DNA from: Candidatus Fimivivens sp.
Lineage (GTDB): Bacteria; Patescibacteriota; Minisyncoccia; Moranbacterales; UBA1568
Length of the DNA stretch: 64,000 nt
Reading direction: 5' to 3'
Assembly (NCBI GenBank): GCA_035560715.1
Contig: DATMYW010000034.1
Coordinates: forward strand, 16,439-80,438
Part shown: in pieces, positions 56,803 to 63,794 of the stretch
How positions within the stretch are numbered: the stretch's first letter is position 1
Layout of the letters: each line of letters opens with the position of its first letter
Program-made: the position numbers and the translations under genes
Notes under the pieces: model-generated
Seen by the model: the letters and a program-made list of their open reading frames with translations, nothing else
Told to the model about the DNA's origin: nothing
The model's database searches: none

Positions 56803-56920
56803 CGCGATATTGACACGGACGCGGAATATGACCTGATAATTCGACAGGTCATATCGGAGTGCTACTATATGGTTATCAGCTCACTCCGGCAGTATTCAAT
56901 ATCAATTTCGCGTAGCCAGT

Positions 56921-58705
56921 ATGACCTCAGCCTCTGAAAACGGTCTCGATGCAATTCGCAATACCGTGAGAGAACTTGCCTCCTCTGACCGTAGACGTCA
57001 TGCTATTCCCGAATCGAATATCCGGGCCGTGAGTATTTTCCTCGATTCGCTCGGTGCCGCGAGCGCCCGTTTTGCCTGCGTCAGGTACGAGAACGGCGAC
57101 GATATCGTCACGAACGGATTGATTTGCGATCAAGAACCGCTTGGTGAAGGTGAGTATTCTTACTCGTTCGTCCCACTGGGATTCATAGTCAGCGGAAACA
57201 TCACCGTCATCAAGGACGGAAAGGGCATGAAAAATCTCGGTGAAGGAGATTTTTTGGGACTGTTTGAGACGAGCGATTGGATACAGACCGGTCAGAAAAG
57301 GCAGATCGGCGACTGGTCTCTGGTCGCATCCGGCGAAGCGATGGTTTTCTATTTCGGTCCTTCCCTGCTTACCGATGAATCCGAGGCGGCCTCCGAATTC
57401 CGGACACATCTCGTCAGCCTCGCGCGCGAAGATCACGTCCCACAGCCGATCACGACGCTCCCTTTGCTTGATTGGGTCGCGAGTCATACGATGAAGGTTC
57501 GTCCCCGGGACTGCGCCATCATCGCACACACCCATCTCCTTCCGAATAACCTGCCGCTGTTCAGACATCTTTCTTCGTTGGTCGATTTCGGAAGGATCTA
57601 CGTCATGGATAAGCCGTATTCGACGGTCCGATCGGCGCTCAACGATCTTGTCTTGGCGGGATTCGAGGTTATCCCGGTCCGGATGGAAGCTGATCTGCCG
57701 TATGAATTCGCGGTTTCCAAGAGTCTCGATGTCCTCTGGAACAAGGTGATCGACGATCAGAAGCGGCGGCAGTACCGGAAGATTCTCATCATCGACGACG
57801 GCGGGGACGTATGGCAGTCCGTTCCGTGGGACGACCTTTCCGGCGTATCTATTGCCGCAGTCGAACAGACACAACGAGGCATCGCCCGTGCGGAGCGAAC
57901 GGGGAAACGGTTTCCTCCTATCGTCAGTGTCGCATCATCGGGCATCAAGAAGAACGTGGAGTCCGAGTTCATCGGCGTTTCCGTCGTGAAGAAGCTCGAC
58001 GATCTCGGAATCCTCACGTCATCGGGACGTGTCGGCATCATCGGCATGGGCAGTATCGGTTCGGCAGTTGAGAAATCGTTGCTGGAGAGGGGAATCGACC
58101 CGCTCTTCTATGATCCGGTCTATCATGTGATGCCGGTTGATTCTCCTCGAAGACGCGATTCTCTGGACGTGCTTCTTGAGGAATGTGATCTCATCGTCGG
58201 AACGACGGGAACGGACGCACTGAAGGGCCTCCCGTTTGAACGGGTCACGACCGGCAAGAAGACGCTCGCGAGCGCGTCGTCTGCCGATCTCGAATTTTCC
58301 TCACTGCTCAAATTGGCGCCGCATCGGTCGGAGCCGTTCGAGACGGTATCGATACCGGTGCATGAGCGCCTGACGATCGATATCCTGAACGGCGGATATC
58401 CCATCAACTTTGATCGGCAGAAGGACGCGACCCCGGACGACGATATCGTATTGACGCGGTGTCTCATGTATGTCGGCGCCATGCAGGCACTCGAACTCAT
58501 TGGCGGTGACGCACCCGACCGGGCCGTCTTCAATCTCGATCCCGTTTCACAAAAGTATTTGCTGTCCCGGTGGATTGACGAGAAGAACACCTCCGGACGC
58601 ACGCCCCGTTTCTCCCGGGCGGATGTCGACGAAATCGTCAACGCTTCATCCTTCGTCGGTGGGAAGGAAATGAAGACCATCTGGATGGACCAATTGAACG
58701 GATAG
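56921..58705 (+). CDS. Two-domain protein: an N-terminal cNMP-binding-like beta-barrel fused to an S-adenosyl-L-homocysteine hydrolase-like domain
   Basis: The N-terminus has GEGDFLGLFE....AMVFYF (CAP/cNMP-like). The C-terminus has IIDDGGDV, LSGVSIAAVEQTQRGIA (compare EETTTGV), IGMGSIGSAV (GxGxxG) and LIVGTTGTD...ASASSADLEF (compare CNIGHFDxEID). Confidence 0.65.
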   Translation: MTSASENGLDAIRNTVRELASSDRRRHAIPESNIRAVSIFLDSLGAASARFACVRYENGDDIVTNGLICDQEPLGEGEYSYSFVPLGFIVSGNITVIKDGKGMKNLGEGDFLGLFETSDWIQTGQKRQIGDWSLVASGEAMVFYFGPSLLTDESEAASEFRTHLVSLAREDHVPQPITTLPLLDWVASHTMKVRPRDCAIIAHTHLLPNNLPLFRHLSSLVDFGRIYVMDKPYSTVRSALNDLVLAGFEVIPVRMEADLPYEFAVSKSLDVLWNKVIDDQKRRQYRKILIIDDGGDVWQSVPWDDLSGVSIAAVEQTQRGIARAERTGKRFPPIVSVASSGIKKNVESEFIGVSVVKKLDDLGILTSSGRVGIIGMGSIGSAVEKSLLERGIDPLFYDPVYHVMPVDSPRRRDSLDVLLEECDLIVGTTGTDALKGLPFERVTTGKKTLASASSADLEFSSLLKLAPHRSEPFETVSIPVHERLTIDILNGGYPINFDRQKDATPDDDIVLTRCLMYVGAMQALELIGGDAPDRAVFNLDPVSQKYLLSRWIDEKNTSGRTPRFSRADVDEIVNASSFVGGKEMKTIWMDQLNG

Positions 58706-58708
58706 TAT

Positions 58709-59002
58709 ATGACTGATACGAAGTACATTCTCGTCTTCGCGTTCATACTGATCAATGTCGCATCTTTCTTGATCATGCTGTTCGATAAAAGTCGGTCGCG
58801 TTCAGACGGGGCAGAGCGCATATCCGAGGGGATGCTGTTTTTCCTGGCAGCCGCATTCGGCAGTTTCGGCGTGTATGCGGGCATGTTCGCCTTCCGTCAC
58901 AAGACCAGGAAATGGCACTTCCTGATCGGTATTCCGCTCCTCATGTTTGAGAATATCGCGACGCTCTATGCCGCGTATATGATTGTGTCCGCCGTACTTT
59001 GA
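58709..59002 (+). CDS. DUF1294-family small membrane protein
   Basis: 97 aa, with MLFDKSRSR....FRHKTRKW and two TM helices. It lies 4 nt after the upstream stop. Confidence 0.6.
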   Translation: MTDTKYILVFAFILINVASFLIMLFDKSRSRSDGAERISEGMLFFLAAAFGSFGVYAGMFAFRHKTRKWHFLIGIPLLMFENIATLYAAYMIVSAVL

Positions 59003-59098
59003 CGGTATAAGCAACACTATTTTGCGGTTGTCGGGTTTCTTGTTCCTTGTCATCTTACGCATTTTCCTGCTACGCTTTGCCTACGATATCATCAGACT

Positions 59099-59650
59099 AT
59101 GAACGAACGAAAGCTCTTCTTGGGCATCCCGCTGTCACCGAAATCGAAGACGCGGATCGTGCAGTCGGTCGCCAAATGGGGCGATCTGCCGGTCTTCGCG
59201 GAGCGTCCCGAGAACCTTCACGTGACGGTGCTGTTTCTCGGGTTCGTGACCGACGAGCACGCGGTGTGGATCGCCGAAATCGCCGCGGATATCTGTTCGG
59301 AGCATGAACCGTTCGATCTGACATTCCGTACGGCGGTCACGGTTCCCGATGTCGGACCCGTGAAGATAATTCACCTCGTCGGGGACGAGAGCGAACCGCT
59401 TCTACGGCTTCAGAATGCGCTTGAGTGCGAACTGCTCGGCAAAAAGGCCGAGGGGAAATGCTTCCGTCCGCACGTGACGCTCGCACGGGTCAAGCGGCAC
59501 GAGTTCGCGTCCCTGTCGCCGGATCGCCTCCCGATATTCCCGCAGGACATTTCCATATCCGAACCGGTCATGTCGGTCGTACTTTATGAAAGCATCGGGA
59601 ACGGGGCGAAGAAACAGTACCTGCAGATGGACGAGTTTCCGCTCGGATAG
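59099..59650 (+). CDS. thpR: RNA 2',3'-cyclic phosphodiesterase (2H phosphoesterase, LigT/ThpR)
   Basis: Two H-x-T-x motifs, HVTVLF and HVTLAR, spaced as in LigT. Confidence 0.8.
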   Translation: MNERKLFLGIPLSPKSKTRIVQSVAKWGDLPVFAERPENLHVTVLFLGFVTDEHAVWIAEIAADICSEHEPFDLTFRTAVTVPDVGPVKIIHLVGDESEPLLRLQNALECELLGKKAEGKCFRPHVTLARVKRHEFASLSPDRLPIFPQDISISEPVMSVVLYESIGNGAKKQYLQMDEFPLG

Positions 59651-59736
59651 GATCAACAATCAGTAAACGGGTATCGGGAACGGGACGCGAAACAGCATCG
59701 GAAATCTTCATCCCGACAACCATCATAAGCGAGGCT

Positions 59737-60474
59737 ATGAGTGAAAGATGTCATGATGAGATACTCGGCATCCCCTTCGATACGCGGTCACAGGGAGAAT
59801 TGGAACGTATCATCGCCGGGTATCTTTGCGGCACAACGTTTCGACGTATCGCGACGGTGAACCCGGAGTTCCTTGTCCTGGCAAAAAACGATCCCGATTT
59901 CGCGAGGTGTCTCATGAGCGCCGACATTCGTATCGTCGATGGATCAGGGATCGTTCTGGTCGGGCTGCTGTCGGGTTTTGGCGTCTCCCGCTATCCCGGG
60001 GCGGACCTCATGACATTCCTCCTTTCGATAGCCGAACGGGAAGAAGTTCCCGTGTATCTGGCGGTGAACCGGGACGGACTTTCGTCATATGTCGACGTCC
60101 ATGATTCGTTGCGAAGGATATTTCCAAACCTGATTCTTTCCGGGTGTGATCTGCTCGGAACGGAGGCAGCGATTCCCGACGATATCCGCGAGGCGGGTCT
60201 GGTCCTGTGCAACTTCGGCGCGCCACGACAGGAATATTTCCTTGAGTCCCTTCGGCATACGCCAGGTTCAATCCGTCTCGCGATGGGCGTCGGCGGTTCA
60301 TTCGATTTCCTTACCGGCAAGCGGAGTCGGGCACCCCGATTGATACGCGCCATGGGCCTCGAATGGCTTTTCAGGCTCGTCACACAACCGAAGAGGTTCG
60401 TGAGGATTTGGAACGCGGTCGTCATTTTCCCTTTTTTGTGCCTATCTGATAGGATGAGAGGCGGGAAACAGTGA
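59737..60474 (+). CDS. WecB/TagA/CpsF-family glycosyltransferase (GT26, UDP-ManNAc-type transferase)
   Basis: The family blocks IATVNPEF and CNFGAPRQEYF...GVGGSFDF are present. Confidence 0.8.
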   Translation: MSERCHDEILGIPFDTRSQGELERIIAGYLCGTTFRRIATVNPEFLVLAKNDPDFARCLMSADIRIVDGSGIVLVGLLSGFGVSRYPGADLMTFLLSIAEREEVPVYLAVNRDGLSSYVDVHDSLRRIFPNLILSGCDLLGTEAAIPDDIREAGLVLCNFGAPRQEYFLESLRHTPGSIRLAMGVGGSFDFLTGKRSRAPRLIRAMGLEWLFRLVTQPKRFVRIWNAVVIFPFLCLSDRMRGGKQ

Positions 60475-60583
60475 ACAAATAGCAGATAACATAAGGCGGG
60501 ACGAATCATAAATCACAAGGCCTATAGTATTTTTAGTAAGATATTGTAGACCCTTGATGTCATTGATACCTGTTCCATGGTAA

Positions 60584-60630
60584 CTGTTTACTGTCGGCTG
60601 TTCTCCGTTTACTGTTTACTGTTTATTGCT
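60584..60630 (+). repeat. Four copies of the heptamer TGTTTAC (three in tandem) immediately upstream of the gltX start codon
   Basis: cTGTTTACtgtcggctgttctccgTTTACTGTTTACTGTTTATTgct ends 4 nt before the ATG at 60633. Confidence 0.4.
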
Positions 60631-60632
60631 CT

Positions 60633-62174
60633 ATGACTTCTCCCATACGTGTCAGATTCGCGCCGTCTCCGACGGGATATCTTCACGTCGGCGGTCTCCG
60701 GACCGCGCTCTACAACTACCTCTTCGCAATGAAGCATCAAGGTGCTTTCATACTCCGCATCGAGGACACCGATCGCGGCCGGTTCGTTGACGGGGCGCTC
60801 GAAAGTCTGGTACGAAGCCTTGAAGGCATCGGACTCGTCCCGACCGAAGGCGTCATGATTTTGGGAGATCGGCATATTTCGGAACGGGTGGTTTCGCGTC
60901 ACTCCGACGCATACCCAGGCGTGTCAGAAGTCGGTTCGCACGGACCATATATACAGTCCGAGCGACTCCATATTTATTCCGAATACGCGGAAAAGCTCAT
61001 CGCATCCGGTCACGCCTACCGGTGTTTCTGTTCACGCGAGCGACTCGACCTGCTGCGTGAAAGACAGACCGCGGATCACGAGGCTCCGAAATACGACAAA
61101 CTCTGTGCATCACTTTCGTCCGAAGAGGTAGCGGATCGGATTGCCGCAGGCGAACCGTCGGTCGTGCGGCTGAACGTTCCGAAAGATCGCGGCGATATCG
61201 TTTTCCACGACTTGGTGCGTGGCGACGTATGCATTCATGCGAACAACGTGGACGACCAGATTCTCGTCAAAACGGACGGCTACCCGACCTATCATCTTGC
61301 CAGCGTGGTCGACGACCATCTCATGGAAGTGACGCATGTCATACGCGGGGAAGAATGGCTCCCAAGCACCCCGAAGCACGTCCTTCTCTACGAAGCCTTC
61401 GGATGGGAGCCACCGATATTCGCCCACCTGACACTTCTCCTGAATCCTGACAAATCCAAACTTTCCAAACGACAGGGCGATGTCGCGGTCGAGGATTATC
61501 TTGCCAAAGGATATCTTCCAGAGGCGCTCATCAACTTCGTGGCATTTCTCGGATGGAATCCGGGGCAGGGGAGCACGAAGGAAGTATTCTCGCTTTCCGA
61601 ACTCGCCGAGGCGTTCGACTTCGCCCAGGTCAACAGGGCCGGCGCCGTATTCGACACGCGCAAGCTCGACTGGCTGAACGCCCAATACATAAAAGCGATG
61701 ACGGTCGAAGAACTCACCCGGAAGGCGCTCCCGTTCCTTCGAAAAAAGACGTACTTCATATCGGCACCGGATGAACGGAAAACCGATGACTACCTCCATC
61801 GCGTCGTTACGATCGGACAGGAAAGACTGATCATCCTCTCCGCGATCGGCGATGAGCACGCGTTTCTCTTTGCGGAGCCGGACGTCGATCCGTCACTGCT
61901 TCCGTGGAAGGGGAATACCGTCGACGATACTCGAGACGCGCTTGAACGGGCACAGAAACTGCTTGCCGATGTATCGGATTCGGACTGGACCCGCGAACGA
62001 CTCGGCGAAATTCTTCTGGAAGCCGCAGGCGAGAAACGGGGCGATTTTCTGTGGCCTCTCCGGGTCGCGCTTTCGGGAGCAAAGCAGTCTCCGCCTCCCC
62101 AGGATATCGCTTGGGTCATCGGGAAGGTATCGACCCTTTCGCGTGTGGCTTCCGCGATGGCAATCCTGTCATAG
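60633..62174 (+). CDS. gltX: Glutamyl-tRNA synthetase
   Basis: PSPTGYLHVGG (HIGH-type), KLSKRQG (KMSKS-type), and a full-length class I catalytic and anticodon-binding architecture. Confidence 0.9.
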   Translation: MTSPIRVRFAPSPTGYLHVGGLRTALYNYLFAMKHQGAFILRIEDTDRGRFVDGALESLVRSLEGIGLVPTEGVMILGDRHISERVVSRHSDAYPGVSEVGSHGPYIQSERLHIYSEYAEKLIASGHAYRCFCSRERLDLLRERQTADHEAPKYDKLCASLSSEEVADRIAAGEPSVVRLNVPKDRGDIVFHDLVRGDVCIHANNVDDQILVKTDGYPTYHLASVVDDHLMEVTHVIRGEEWLPSTPKHVLLYEAFGWEPPIFAHLTLLLNPDKSKLSKRQGDVAVEDYLAKGYLPEALINFVAFLGWNPGQGSTKEVFSLSELAEAFDFAQVNRAGAVFDTRKLDWLNAQYIKAMTVEELTRKALPFLRKKTYFISAPDERKTDDYLHRVVTIGQERLIILSAIGDEHAFLFAEPDVDPSLLPWKGNTVDDTRDALERAQKLLADVSDSDWTRERLGEILLEAAGEKRGDFLWPLRVALSGAKQSPPPQDIAWVIGKVSTLSRVASAMAILS

Positions 62175-62181
62175 TTACGCC

Positions 62182-62787
62182 ATGAAAGAGATCATCTTTG
62201 ATTTCGACGGGGTTATCCATGACACGTTCTGCTTTCATTTGGAACATTTGCGGACGTTTTTCGGTGTGACCCTGACGGCTCGGGAGTTACGCGACATGTC
62301 CAATGGAAATATTTTCGAATCCCTCCCAGAACAATTGAAAGACGCCGATTGGGGAGCATATGCTGACCATATCGGCATGAGTTTCTCGTTATTGCCATTA
62401 CGGGCTGAGATCAGGGATACGATTGAAGCGCTCGCGGCCGATTACTCCCTGCATATCATAACATCGGCAAGCGGTAAGGTTGTCGAAGATTTTCTTGTCG
62501 GTAACGGCGTCCGTAAACGGTTCGGCGATGTACTCGGCTGGGAACATGACCGATCGAAGAGCGTGAAATTCGATTCGATTTTCGAAAAATATGACGCGGA
62601 TCCATCAGGCTGCGTCTTTGTCACGGACACGCTCGGTGATATCCTTGAGGCAAGAGAGGTCGGTGTGAGAACGATCGCCATCGATACCGGATTCCACGAT
62701 CGAGAAACGCTTCTTAAAGGAAAACCTCATGCGATCATCTCCAACCTGGAAGAACTTCATCGGGTGATCGAATCGCTTGACGAATAA
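62182..62787 (+). CDS. HAD-superfamily phosphatase
   Basis: The FDFDGVIHDT motif I (DxDG) and later HAD motifs. The start is taken at MKEIIF, Met111 of the track ORF, 8 nt after the gltX stop. Confidence 0.75.
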   Translation: MKEIIFDFDGVIHDTFCFHLEHLRTFFGVTLTARELRDMSNGNIFESLPEQLKDADWGAYADHIGMSFSLLPLRAEIRDTIEALAADYSLHIITSASGKVVEDFLVGNGVRKRFGDVLGWEHDRSKSVKFDSIFEKYDADPSGCVFVTDTLGDILEAREVGVRTIAIDTGFHDRETLLKGKPHAIISNLEELHRVIESLDE

Positions 62788-62805
62788 CGTACTGATACCG
62801 AGACC

Positions 62806-63414
62806 ATGGAACGGATAGACGACGTACTTGATTTTCTCCGGAAAGCGGAAGGACTGAAGTCCGCGCTTCGGTATGGAAAAACGACGAGCGGCCGGCAGGA
62901 GTCGGCAGCCGAACATTCATGGCGGGTGGCGTTGATGTCATTCATCGTGGCCGAGCAGCTGAGTATCGATATCGACATCCGTCGAGCGATTCGGATGGCG
63001 CTTATCCATGACATTGCCGAGTCCTTGACCGGAGACATCGATTTCGTCCGCATTTCGGACGGCGAGGCGACGAAAGAGGGGAAGCACGATGCGGAGAAAA
63101 AAGCGATATCCGAACTGGGAAAGACCCTTTCCGGGAAGTCGGGCGATGATCTGTGCTCAGTCTGGAATGAATACGAGGCGGGTCAGACGGAAATCGCGCG
63201 TTACGTGAGAGCCATCGATAAACTCGAGACACTGACGCAGCTTGTCGAAAGCGGCTACGAGACCTATGATCGGCCGGAACTGATCCCGAATTACGCCGAT
63301 GCCGCCGTAAAAGCCTTCCCACAGCTGTCGCCCATGCTTGTATCCATCAAGACCAGGCTCCGAGCCGAGTTCGATAAGGCAGGATTTAAATGGATCGAAA
63401 CATACGACCTATGA
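62806..63414 (+). CDS. HD-domain phosphohydrolase (YfbR-like 5'-deoxynucleotidase family)
   Basis: ESAAEHSWRVA....HDIAESLTGDI, the H..HD...D metal-binding pattern. Confidence 0.75.
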   Translation: MERIDDVLDFLRKAEGLKSALRYGKTTSGRQESAAEHSWRVALMSFIVAEQLSIDIDIRRAIRMALIHDIAESLTGDIDFVRISDGEATKEGKHDAEKKAISELGKTLSGKSGDDLCSVWNEYEAGQTEIARYVRAIDKLETLTQLVESGYETYDRPELIPNYADAAVKAFPQLSPMLVSIKTRLRAEFDKAGFKWIETYDL

Positions 63415-63794
63415 AGTCGAAACGCGTCCGGAGCAGCATGGAACTGATCGACTTCTGGTCGATTCCACACTTTCTTTTCGGTTCCGTAACGGCCCTCATC
63501 GCCTCCGTTTTCGCGTTGCCTTCGGTAACAATGTTCATATCGACCTTCGTACTCGCTGTTTTCTGGGAGCTGTTCGAGTTCCGGAGTCACATCATCGAGA
63601 GCATGCGGAACAGGGTGACGGATATCCTGTATCCGCTTATCGCGTTTCCGATGACCTATATTTTCGCACAGAACGCCGTGAACGATCACCACCGTCGCAT
63701 ATCGCTCCTTGCCATCGTTTCTATCATCTTTTTCTACATCAACTATATGGCCTGGAAAGCGCGTTTCGAGCACGATGGTGACTTCGCGAACTAG
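63411..63794 (+). CDS. Small membrane protein with about 4 TM segments; hypothetical
   Basis: Hydrophobic segments. The ATG overlaps the upstream stop (ATGA). Confidence 0.45.
   Translation: MKSKRVRSSMELIDFWSIPHFLFGSVTALIASVFALPSVTMFISTFVLAVFWELFEFRSHIIESMRNRVTDILYPLIAFPMTYIFAQNAVNDHHRRISLLAIVSIIFFYINYMAWKARFEHDGDFAN

Follow-up and report, generated by a model that had tools for sequence, protein, structure and literature searches.

Within the 64,000-nt stretch of Candidatus Fimivivens sp. DNA analysed here (hereafter the window), we describe a gene that fuses a module of the cyclic-nucleotide-binding (CNB) fold to a core folded like S-adenosylhomocysteine hydrolase (SAHH). Judging from its residue patterns, we tentatively regard its product as an active SAHH-superfamily enzyme that would carry NAD and would not act on S-adenosylhomocysteine (SAH). 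SAHH is among the most conserved enzymes known and, to our knowledge, only a handful of relatives with a diverged function are on record (the AHCYL pseudo-enzymes, archaeal S-inosylhomocysteine hydrolase (SIHH) and the dehydratase AgmF). The family reported here is large, prokaryotic and unstudied, and its members are wrongly labelled in databases as adenosylhomocysteinase or as generic oxidoreductases. A prokaryotic sister family of SAHH with an altered yet invariant active site, a CNB partnership and methyltransferase fusions points to NAD-dependent chemistry of a new kind on nucleosides and to a novel role for the CNB fold. In addition, since several Patescibacteria MAG annotations carry the label 'adenosylhomocysteinase', methyl-cycle reconstructions may be wrong.

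Gene organization

Around the gene is a conserved block of housekeeping genes (priA, def, fmt / ligT, wecG, gltX) whose GC content is uniform. An earlier note on this DNA, made from the letters alone, had reported ORFs of 594 aa (56921-58705) and 97 aa (58709-59002, DUF1294), and both exist as described. The features of the locus are:

56826..56854, + strand: 10-nt perfect inverted repeat ATATGACCTG-N9-CAGGTCATAT, inside the 118-nt upstream intergenic region
56921..58705, + strand: CNB-fold module and SAHH-fold core, fused; complete ORF of 594 aa
56921..57055, + strand: N-terminal helix pair preceding the barrel, residues 1-45 (predicted helices 6-21 and 28-43, high pLDDT)
57056..57445, + strand: CNB-fold beta-barrel, residues 46-175
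57446..57934, + strand: SAHH-like substrate-binding domain, residues 176-338 (profile alignments, conservation in 66 relatives)
57935..57976, + strand: hinge, residues 339-352, with invariant K343, E347 and S348 (profile alignments, conservation)
57977..58423, + strand: NAD-binding Rossmann domain, residues 353-501 (PF02826 at residues 365-427, profile alignments, conservation)
58424..58702, + strand: return to the substrate domain, then family-specific helical C-terminal region, residues 502-594
58709..59002, + strand: DUF1294 small membrane protein, 97 aa (PF06961)
59099..59650, + strand: LigT-like 2H phosphoesterase, co-directional, downstream (PF02834, E=2.7e-17)

The NCBI annotation of the identical protein (P0001) is 558 aa long, 36 codons shorter than our ORF. 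The real start of the gene is nevertheless 56921, because homologs span 95-99% of the 594 aa, N33, upstream of the NCBI start, is nearly invariant, and residues 11-40 have a pLDDT of 86-95 in the predicted structure.

The core has the SAHH fold and an altered active site

Fold comparison and full-length profiles revealed the full two-domain SAHH fold, in which a substrate-binding and an NAD-binding domain are joined by hinges, at 15-20% identity to SAHH itself (human AHCY 1li4, T. maritima 3x2f and C. hutchinsonii 6gbn). The best PDB matches by sequence profile were the AHCY-like pseudo-enzymes 3gvp and 3mtg (E=1.5e-10), and the archaeal SIHH structures 7r3a and 7r37 were structural matches with E of about 1e-11. 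CNB-like and SAHH-like domains with substituted catalytic motifs, as proposed in the earlier note, are thus upheld, and all the motif blocks named there align with SAHH: HTH with the H55 region, DDGGD with D130-D134, VEQTQRG with EETTTG, the GxGxxG motif, and SASSADLEF with NIGHFDVEI.

In profile alignments of the substrate domain, LPLLD corresponds to EMPGL of SAHH, H205 to H55, L207 to T57 and N209 to E59, while Y233-S-T and D292-D293-G-G-D correspond to F82-S-T and D130-D134, respectively. The block E315-Q316-T317-Q-R-G matches E155-E156-T157-T-T-G, with Glu156 replaced by Gln and both T158 and T159 changed. In the hinge, K343 is the equivalent of the catalytic K186, E347 is a conservative Glu at D190 and S348 stands for N191. 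The NAD motif GxGxxG is found as G375-x-G377-x-x-G380 with all three glycines invariant, and D398, at the end of beta-2, is also invariant, corresponding to E243 by position only (hhalign places the two with an offset of two residues). By this motif and the Asp ending beta-2, the Rossmann site is predicted to be of the NAD(H) type and intact. Further Rossmann motifs are G427-T-T-G430 and N490-G-G-Y-P-I-N496-F-D, where N496 is equivalent to N346. The C-terminal region includes a D-I-V-L-T512-R helix, the invariant W551 and the nearly invariant W588. Compared with SAHH, the window protein has an additional N-terminal CNB module and an unalignable C-terminal tail, its last ~60 residues being matched by a global alignment without confidence to the SAHH tail, which in the SAHH tetramer extends (Lys426/Tyr430) to the NAD site of the adjacent subunit.

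In SAHH, Lys186 and Thr157 lie at the ribose 3'-OH and Asp190 and Glu156 at the 2'-OH, His55 and Asp131 take part in water activation and C4' protonation, and Gly300-His301-Phe302, 'completely conserved among SAHHs', forms the gate of the homocysteine channel (PMC4647836). By alignment, the window protein retains equivalents of the 3'-OH contacts (K343 and T317) and of the acid-base pair at 5'-OH/C4' (H205 and D293), and at the 2'-OH position E347 stands for Asp190. At the gate, S451-A-S453-S454-A-D456-L-E458 is found in place of N-I-G-H301-F-D-V-E, Gly300-His301-Phe302 becoming S453-S454-A455, and the positions that contact adenine all differ (Thr57 to L207, Glu59 to Asn, Ser or Thr at 209, and His353 to a variable A503). 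The supposed replacement of the signature catalytic His and Thr is therefore correct for His301, now S454, and incorrect for His55 and Thr157, which are retained as H205 and T317.

Conservation was assessed in 66 relatives, 18 close and 48 distant. Invariant or nearly invariant positions comprise H205, Asp or Glu at 293, E315, Q316, T317, K343, E347, the GxGxxG motif and D398, together with S451, S454, E458 and NGG[FY]PxNFD; H205, Q316, T317, K343 and E347 are invariant and S454 is so in 65 of the 66. Because the substituted positions are themselves (nearly) invariant across distant phyla, they suggest an active site that was re-tooled under conservation and not one that decayed.

The CNB-fold module

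The module is predicted to fold as an eight-stranded beta-barrel with a phosphate-binding-cassette helix, which is long (residues 114-123, about twice the usual CNB length), and a C-terminal linker helix (155-170). Both the motif G109-D-F-x-G-L-F-E-T117 and R127 are invariant. The phosphate-binding Arg had been described as lacking; in a marginal match (E=0.026), R127 falls at the place of the PKA-R cassette Arg, and the residue that appears absent is instead the cassette Glu, its position being taken by L114. This Leu would set the module apart from the CNB domains of PKA-R, PKG, HCN/CNG channels, CRP/FNR and PycTIR. In Pfam searches the window sequence gave no match to PF00027 at the gathering threshold, and 6 of 25 relatives matched it at E>=0.0019; Cupin_3 matches were equally weak.

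Of 73 loci, 40 pair the core with a CNB module, either fused (19 loci), encoded by an adjacent gene for a separate protein of ~420-500 aa (20 loci), or fused whole (L050). The fusion is common in Patescibacteria, and in other phyla the module is separately encoded. The separate homologs lack the phosphate-binding Arg, and their C-terminal ~270 aa gave no match in Pfam, NCBIfam or PDB sequences. In the literature searched, no description of a CNB domain fused to an SAHH-fold core was found.

Family distribution and recurring partners

The extended family comprises 877 representatives at 50% identity. Its carriers include Bradyrhizobium sp. WSM3983 and Legionella yabuuchiae, which are in culture, and plasmids of Legionella pneumophila; no phage copies were found. 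Database records offer no known function for the fusion and only automatic names, which conflict across sources (adenosylhomocysteinase versus the NCBI name 'NAD(P)-dependent oxidoreductase'), and the literature searched contained nothing relevant on a prokaryotic SAHH-like/CNB/methyltransferase family (or 'CD3073').

A HemK/RsmC-type N-methyltransferase is fused to the N- or C-terminus of the family protein or encoded within 24 nt of it in 16 loci, and the same link recurs in representatives P0121, P0133, P0137, P0142 and P0114; in L084 the methyltransferase gene overlaps the start of the family gene. The nearest solved relatives of this methyltransferase are all N-methyltransferases. In about 11 loci ECF S/T/A genes share an operon with the core, and those of Proteobacteria are workable starting points in a search for the substrate. 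Neither a CNB module nor the methyltransferase was found nearby in 33 of the 73 loci. The 64-kb window contains no homolog of the methyltransferase, the CNB partner, the ECF genes or canonical AHCY, and the pathway context discussed below is thus borrowed from relatives at 24-60% identity.

Proposed activity and alternative explanations

In the activity that we favour, tightly bound NAD+ would transiently oxidise a ribosyl-type hydroxyl, as in SAHH and AgmF, and the oxidation would make the adjacent carbon reactive, so that elimination or addition could follow on the 5' side of another nucleoside-like compound with another leaving group. The best precedent for such an activity is AgmF, an SAHH homolog annotated as SAH hydrolase that rejects SAH and is a self-sufficient NAD+-dependent angustmycin C dehydratase, which with its tightly bound NAD+ oxidises another nucleoside transiently and carries out an elimination on it, with H56, D129, K184, D188 and H299 essential by mutagenesis (PMC8599513). 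The window protein has equivalents of four of these residues (H205, D293, K343 and E347), whereas Ser occupies the position of H299/H301. AgmF is also ~34% identical to true SAHH and keeps both His residues; the window family is far more divergent, lacks the second His, carries a CNB module and lies outside any angustmycin-type cluster. Archaeal SIHHs (7r3a, 7r37), which are SAHH folds with altered base specificity, retain the catalytic residues for the ribose and the 5' position, the His gate among them, whereas in the window protein the whole base pocket and the gate both differ.

The fused CNB fold would act as a standing partner of the core, most likely binding a small ligand or substrate and gating the open/closed domain motion; it is probably no cAMP/cGMP sensor. 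In many relatives the core would cooperate with an N-methyltransferase of the HemK/RsmC/GenN type, and an ECF importer would join them in Proteobacteria, a combination which suggests that the pathway probably acts on a nucleoside-like metabolite that bears an amino group and is imported or salvaged. In the window's own lineage CNB module and core are fused and no methyltransferase lies within 64 kb. A wider proposal, possible though doubtful, is that of an unrecognised, widespread bacterial and archaeal pathway in which a re-tooled SAHH-fold enzyme and an obligatory CNB partner would work with a dedicated N-methyltransferase, aided by an ECF importer in Proteobacteria, Nitrospirota and Verrucomicrobia, to make or salvage an N-methylated nucleoside-like metabolite. 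The Patescibacteria would then hold a compact fused version of it, misread as the SAH hydrolase of the methyl cycle.

The earlier note had left the choice between a ligand-sensing pseudo-enzyme and a diverged NAD-dependent enzyme. If the former, the core would bind NAD(H), a nucleoside or both but not turn them over, and would serve with the CNB module as a regulator or scaffold, by analogy with AHCYL1/IRBIT. AHCYL1 and AHCYL2 (IRBIT; 3mtg, 3gvp) resemble the window protein in joining an SAHH-like domain to an added N-terminal regulatory region, and they supplied its top PDB profile matches; moreover, E156, H301 and H353 are substituted, the fused domain is of a class that normally serves sensing, and two-component regulators adjoin the Legionella copy. 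The AHCYL proteins are, however, eukaryotic, with canonical SAHH active-site residues and a disordered, phospho-regulated N-terminal segment that has no CNB fold. That a complete set of acid, base and Lys residues, together with the substituted positions, is almost absolutely conserved across very great evolutionary distances fits catalysis better, the genes sharing operons with the core encode enzymes and an importer rather than signalling outputs, and the window protein carries no fused DNA-binding or other output domain. We consider a pseudo-enzyme unlikely. The invariant substituted sites, the kept Lys, Glu, His, Asp and Thr and the intact NAD motif favour a diverged enzyme with a new substrate; these retained residues would fit catalysis and do not prove it, as AHCYL1/2 keep theirs and are nonetheless inactive.

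It is also improbable that the protein is a true, if divergent, hydrolase of SAH (or S-inosylhomocysteine) and clears the inhibitory by-product of a methyltransferase. Such a role would explain the frequent methyltransferase fusion or adjacency, and would agree with the SAHH fold, the NAD site, the kept equivalents of K186, D190, H55, D131 and T157, the name adenosylhomocysteinase given by several sources and the failure to find a canonical ahcY in the 64-kb window. Against it stand the Ser-Ser-Ala gate, the change of Glu156 to Gln and the three different adenine-recognition positions. The curated ahcY/AdoHcyase models (TIGR00936, NF004005 and PF05221/PF00670) gave no match to the window protein at E<=1, and one relative (L040) scored 28 bits against the curated ahcY cut-off of 497.6. 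AgmF retains more of the SAHH site and still rejects SAH, and housekeeping SAH removal needs neither an ECF importer nor a CNB partner.

That the protein is simply a D-2-hydroxyacid-type dehydrogenase, NAD(P)-dependent and with net redox chemistry, seems very unlikely. The sole above-threshold Pfam match of the core is PF02826 (2-Hacid_dh_C; 29.1 bits vs 25.1), NCBIfam gave weak matches to PdxB, PGDH and aspartate dehydrogenase, and the NCBI product name points the same way. These single-sequence searches, like phmmer against the PDB, see only the Rossmann NAD core that the D-2-hydroxyacid dehydrogenases (PF02826/PF00389) share with the window protein; the PF02826 match covers 63 residues (365-427), no catalytic-domain match was found in the window protein, and by fold these dehydrogenases match it half as strongly as SAHH does. 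Profile and fold comparisons overturned the filing and upheld SAHH; the earlier note had named a profile assignment to another Rossmann family, such as this one, as what would refute its reading.

A Pycsar/CBASS-like effector, in which the CNB domain would sense a cyclic nucleotide and switch on an NAD-binding effector, can hardly be entertained given the missing cassette Glu, the partner homologs without the Arg, the conserved housekeeping block of uniform GC, and the lack of a PADLOC match, of a cyclase in the neighbourhood and of phage copies. PADLOC was blank for the core, the CNB partner and DUF1294, and its mad2/mad3 matches reflect generic methyltransferase/ABC-ATPase similarity; a defence system was accordingly rejected.

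Flanking sequences

A promoter-like site, TCGACA-16-TACTAT at 56841-56868, is overlapped by the upstream inverted repeat (56826..56854), which occurs once in the window against a chance expectation of 0 and is a candidate operator. The nearest relatives, L001 and L002, do not share this palindrome.

The DUF1294 assignment is firm (PF06961, 69 bits vs 25, E=4e-19). Its ATG lies 3 nt after the TAG stop of the 594-aa ORF, with GGA 6 nt upstream, and the gene belongs to the same operon and is probably translationally coupled. The earlier view of a gene that is probably co-translated is sound, whereas the co-occurrence is restricted to the immediate Moranbacteria-like clade of the window (L001, L002, L082 and L083). 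Being linked in only 2 of the 79 genome loci, and otherwise in two close metagenomic relatives, with a variable position (in L083 it lies on the other side, upstream of the family gene), DUF1294 was rejected as a general functional partner. LigT was rejected likewise, its linkage being confined to the window's own clade; in L083 the LigT-like gene overlaps the stop codon of the family gene.

Locus and reading frames

The earlier note had described two consecutive reading frames on the forward strand, and both were found as it described them, the second being clearly a DUF1294 gene. The features of the locus are:

56826-56854, intergenic (priA/family gene): perfect inverted repeat ATATGACCTG-N9-CAGGTCATAT, the only one in the window (chance expectation 0)
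56921-58705, + strand: family gene, 594 aa (ORF call)
58709-59002, + strand: DUF1294 ORF, 97 aa (Pfam PF06961, E=4e-19)

The DUF1294 ATG lies 3 nt past the TAG stop of the family gene and is preceded by a GGA 6 nt upstream; a search for terminator-like sites found none between the two genes, making co-transcription and translational coupling plausible. The inverted repeat overlaps a promoter-like site (56841-56868) and could be an operator; the equivalent place in L002, a locus of one of the closest relatives, holds a palindrome, but a different one. The NCBI protein P0001 (558 aa), identical to that of the window, begins 36 codons past the ORF start (window 56921-57028). This database start is probably too short, because homologs extend over the additional N-terminal residues, N33 hardly varies among them and the two N-terminal helices are confidently modelled.

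GC content is uniform across the region. The family gene has priA/def/fmt on one side, encoded on the opposite strand, and ligT, wecG and gltX on the other, encoded in its own direction. Window 56921-63700 is syntenic with Candidatus Moranbacteria MAGs (compared with L002 and the near-relative contig L082; GltX 92%, LigT 65%, WecG 64% identity). The NCBI label of the identical protein, 'Candidatus Fimivivens sp.' (Oscillospiraceae, Bacillota), disagrees with this synteny and with the otherwise Patescibacterial family, and probably reflects wrong binning or labelling of the source contig.

The C-terminal region has the SAHH fold

Single-sequence searches with the window protein detected just the Rossmann core, as Pfam PF02826 (2-Hacid_dh_C; residues 365-427; score 29.1 bits, cut-off 25.1) and as weak dehydrogenase matches in NCBIfam and, with phmmer, in the PDB, where S-adenosylhomocysteine hydrolase (SAHH) appeared at E=0.78. 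A database search recovered a well-conserved family of ~590-aa homologs (165 clusters, 41-69% identical, nearly all from Patescibacteria MAGs), named 'adenosylhomocysteinase', 'NAD(P)-dependent oxidoreductase' or 'hypothetical' depending on the source. A profile of 55 members (A1) best matched AHCY-like and SAHH chains, the top one being 3gvp (E=1.5e-10, residues 197-459 onto 52-312) in an alignment that spans both SAHH domains; 2-hydroxyacid dehydrogenases aligned at positions 370-430 alone. When the confident AlphaFold model built from the A1 alignment (pLDDT 90.8, pTM 0.91) was compared with the PDB by Foldseek, the best 50 matches were all SAHHs (best E=3.2e-13, TM 0.73 of target, ~400 columns). 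Aligning a profile of 66 diverse relatives globally with human AHCY (reference sequence identical to 1li4) gave a probability of 98.2% and E=4.3e-13 over 387 columns. Profile, fold and AHCY alignment thus bear out the SAHH assignment made in the earlier note and speak against any other Rossmann family.

A retained catalytic set within an altered pocket

Every motif block listed in that note aligned with SAHH as it had stated. Residue equivalences were taken from profile alignments to SAHH/AHCY chains.

Residues of the window protein and their human SAHH equivalents (roles from mouse SAHH structures, PMC4647836)
Kept: H205 = H55, general base for water
Kept: D293 = D131, C4' proton
Kept: T317 = T157 and K343 = K186, 3'-OH
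Kept: E347 = D190 (conservative change), 2'-OH
Kept: N496 = N346; D456, E458 = D303, E305
Kept: G375xG377xxG380 = GxGxxG, NAD binding
Kept: D398 = acidic residue after beta-2
Changed: Q316 for E156, 2'-OH
Changed: S453-S454-A455 for G300-H301-F302, homocysteine-channel gate, 'completely conserved among SAHHs'
Changed: L207 for T57, adenine N1
Changed: N209 for E59, adenine N6
Changed: A503 (variable) for H353, adenine N6/N7 via backbone
Changed: Q318, R319 for T158, T159; S348 for N191

The protein therefore has the SAHH fold, its NAD site and its catalytic residues for the 3'-OH and C4'. Conservation was assessed in 66 relatives, 18 close and 48 distant, the latter from Proteobacteria, Nitrospirota, Verrucomicrobia, Actinomycetes, Cyanobacteria, Bacteroidota, Acidobacteria and Woesearchaeota. 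Invariant or nearly so were H205, Y233, D292, D/E293, G294, E315, Q316, T317, G320, K343, E347, GxGxxG, D398, S451, S454, E458, N490-G-G-[FY]-P-x-N-F-D498 and T512. An acidic residue after beta-2 in Rossmann folds is typical of NAD, not NADP. Changed positions are thus themselves conserved across close and distant relatives, which marks a distinct active site maintained by selection and not a decaying one.

The N-terminal CNB-fold module

The signal for a cyclic-nucleotide-binding (CNB) fold in residues 1-175 is marginal at the sequence level: the profile matched PKA-R at E=0.026, and Pfam cNMP_binding matched six of the 25 members (E>=0.0019), with Cupin_3 equally weak. The earlier note had considered the phosphate-binding Arg absent, which is not supported: the marginal PKA-R alignment places the invariant R127 on the cassette Arg, and L114 where the cassette has its Glu. 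Residues 114-123 form an unusually long cassette helix. It is doubtful that the module binds cNMP in the canonical way, since the cassette Glu is missing and homologous partner proteins of other phyla are without the Arg.

Distribution and recurrent partners

An exhaustive profile search of 1.84 billion representatives returned 877 at E<=1e-30 and 2215 at E<=1e-10. Among the best 150, only about two dozen, fragments included, have the CNB-plus-core architecture; the others are mostly stand-alone cores of ~430 aa, with a few ~850 aa fusions. Scanning one genome per species gave 79 loci (L and P numbers below denote loci of relatives and database protein representatives). The CNB module is fused to or beside the core in 40 of 73 loci: fused in 19, on a separate partner protein in 20, and as a whole partner fused to the core in L050. 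The separate partners (~420-500 aa) begin with a CNB-module homolog and are encoded directly beside the core. Their remaining ~270 residues found no match in Pfam, NCBIfam or PDB sequences and, as far as sequence tells, are an uncharacterised domain whose gene is always next to that of the SAHH-like core.

Recurrent partners of the core
Partner-protein genes: L033:4667-5995, L035:4476-5999, L026:2713-3966, L044:4511-5911 and 16 further loci
Methyltransferase fused N-terminally: P0114, L018, L020, P0121, P0133
Methyltransferase fused C-terminally: L016, L017, L019, L022, L030, L035, L041, L046, L047, P0137, P0142
Methyltransferase as neighbouring gene (<=24 nt): L005, L006, L008, L031
Methyltransferase overlapping the family gene's start: L084
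ECF operons: L030:2317-7713, L035:2061-7746, L046:2072-7530, L047:2263-7758; also L022, L031, L033, L041, L044, L050
TrmB-like regulators: L005:4350-5093, L006:4371-5114, L008:1907-2665, L018:4395-5147, L036:4404-5174, L052:4191-4961
Plasmid cores: L080, Legionella pneumophila plasmid NZ_CP015948.1, 58056-59420; L081, Simkania negevensis pSn, 124156-125382

The methyltransferase is of MTS/HemK2 type and carries an N-x-P-[YF]-H motif; its nearest solved relatives, RsmC, the aminoglycoside enzyme GenN, METTL5 and HemK/N6AMT1, are all N-methyltransferases. ECF-type importer genes occur in ~11 loci of Proteobacteria, Nitrospirota and Verrucomicrobia, in the conserved order S component (CD3073 family, E=2.7e-30), T-like component (weak match), tandem ECF ATPase, CNB partner and core fused to the N-methyltransferase. 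Seven Parcubacteria/Woesearchaeota loci carry a divergent gene for a TrmB-like regulator of winged-helix type (~250 aa) immediately upstream of the family gene or its methyltransferase, which suggests local, ligand-dependent regulation. The 64-kb window, searched for the methyltransferase, CNB partner and ECF genes, contained none, and a search of phages found no copies of the core. Stand-alone cores are carried by conjugative plasmids of the intracellular bacteria L. pneumophila and S. negevensis; the Legionella core gene adjoins that of a large response regulator, and downstream of the Simkania one come genes for an SDR oxidoreductase and an EamA-family transporter.

Proposed function

In the literature that could be searched, 'SAHH-like' proteins were only eukaryotic AHCYL/IRBIT, and no prokaryotic CNB-SAHH-like or SAHH-like-methyltransferase family was found. 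We class the family as a large subfamily that is new within the SAHH superfamily, as is its domain architecture and, probably, its reaction. 'Adenosylhomocysteinase' labels on Patescibacteria members should be taken as unverified, because these proteins fail the defining features of SAHH.

We propose that the substrate would be some nucleoside-like molecule and not S-adenosylhomocysteine (SAH), that NAD+ would transiently oxidise a ribosyl-type hydroxyl of it, and that elimination or addition at the 5' side would follow. Such turnover is suggested by the invariance of the altered pocket and by the precedent of AgmF, a homolog of SAHH that does not accept SAH but uses bound NAD+ to dehydrate angustmycin C (PMC8599513). 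The CNB domain is a constant partner of the core. As SAHH catalysis depends on domain closure, the simplest reading is that this domain may act as a ligand-dependent gate or present the substrate. The methyltransferase and ECF links suggest that the pathway may handle a nucleoside-like metabolite that bears an amino group and is either imported or salvaged. Taken whole, this explanation is tentative, and we give it somewhat less than an even chance.

A pseudo-enzyme or sensor is unlikely, the catalytic set being retained and the altered positions conserved. Slightly less likely again is a genuine, if divergent, SAH hydrolase that works for the methyltransferase fused to it: the recurring fusions speak for it, the replaced SAHH gate against it. 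A plain 2-hydroxyacid-type dehydrogenase is improbable, as the similarity is confined to positions 370-430 and profile and fold favour SAHH. A defence effector activated by cyclic nucleotide is the least credible. The L005:5214-5939 methyltransferase matches PADLOC mad2 (E=3.4e-20) and the L035:3321-4457 ABC ATPase mad3 (E=1.8e-15), both models of the MADS defence system; these were set aside as generic domain similarity because the core, CNB partner and membrane components matched none of the MADS models.

Neighbours confined to the window's clade

The DUF1294 link proposed in the earlier note stands for the adjacent ORF and is limited in reach. By tblastn, DUF1294 follows the family gene in 2 of 79 genome loci, those of the two closest relatives (L001, L002). 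Near-relative contigs keep the same housekeeping block, with DUF1294 downstream in L082, upstream of the family gene with a serine hydrolase gene between in L083, and absent at 60% identity in L084, where the methyltransferase is adjacent. The linkage is thus real but limited to one Moranbacteria-like clade, and it is inseparable from inherited synteny. Across the window's clade, but not beyond it, a LigT-like 2H phosphoesterase gene (window 59099-59650) adjoins the family gene; in L083 (4785-5345) the two overlap by 4 nt at the stop codon of the family gene. LigT-superfamily enzymes act on 2',3'-cyclic phosphates, and the position of one beside a CNB-fold domain is suggestive.
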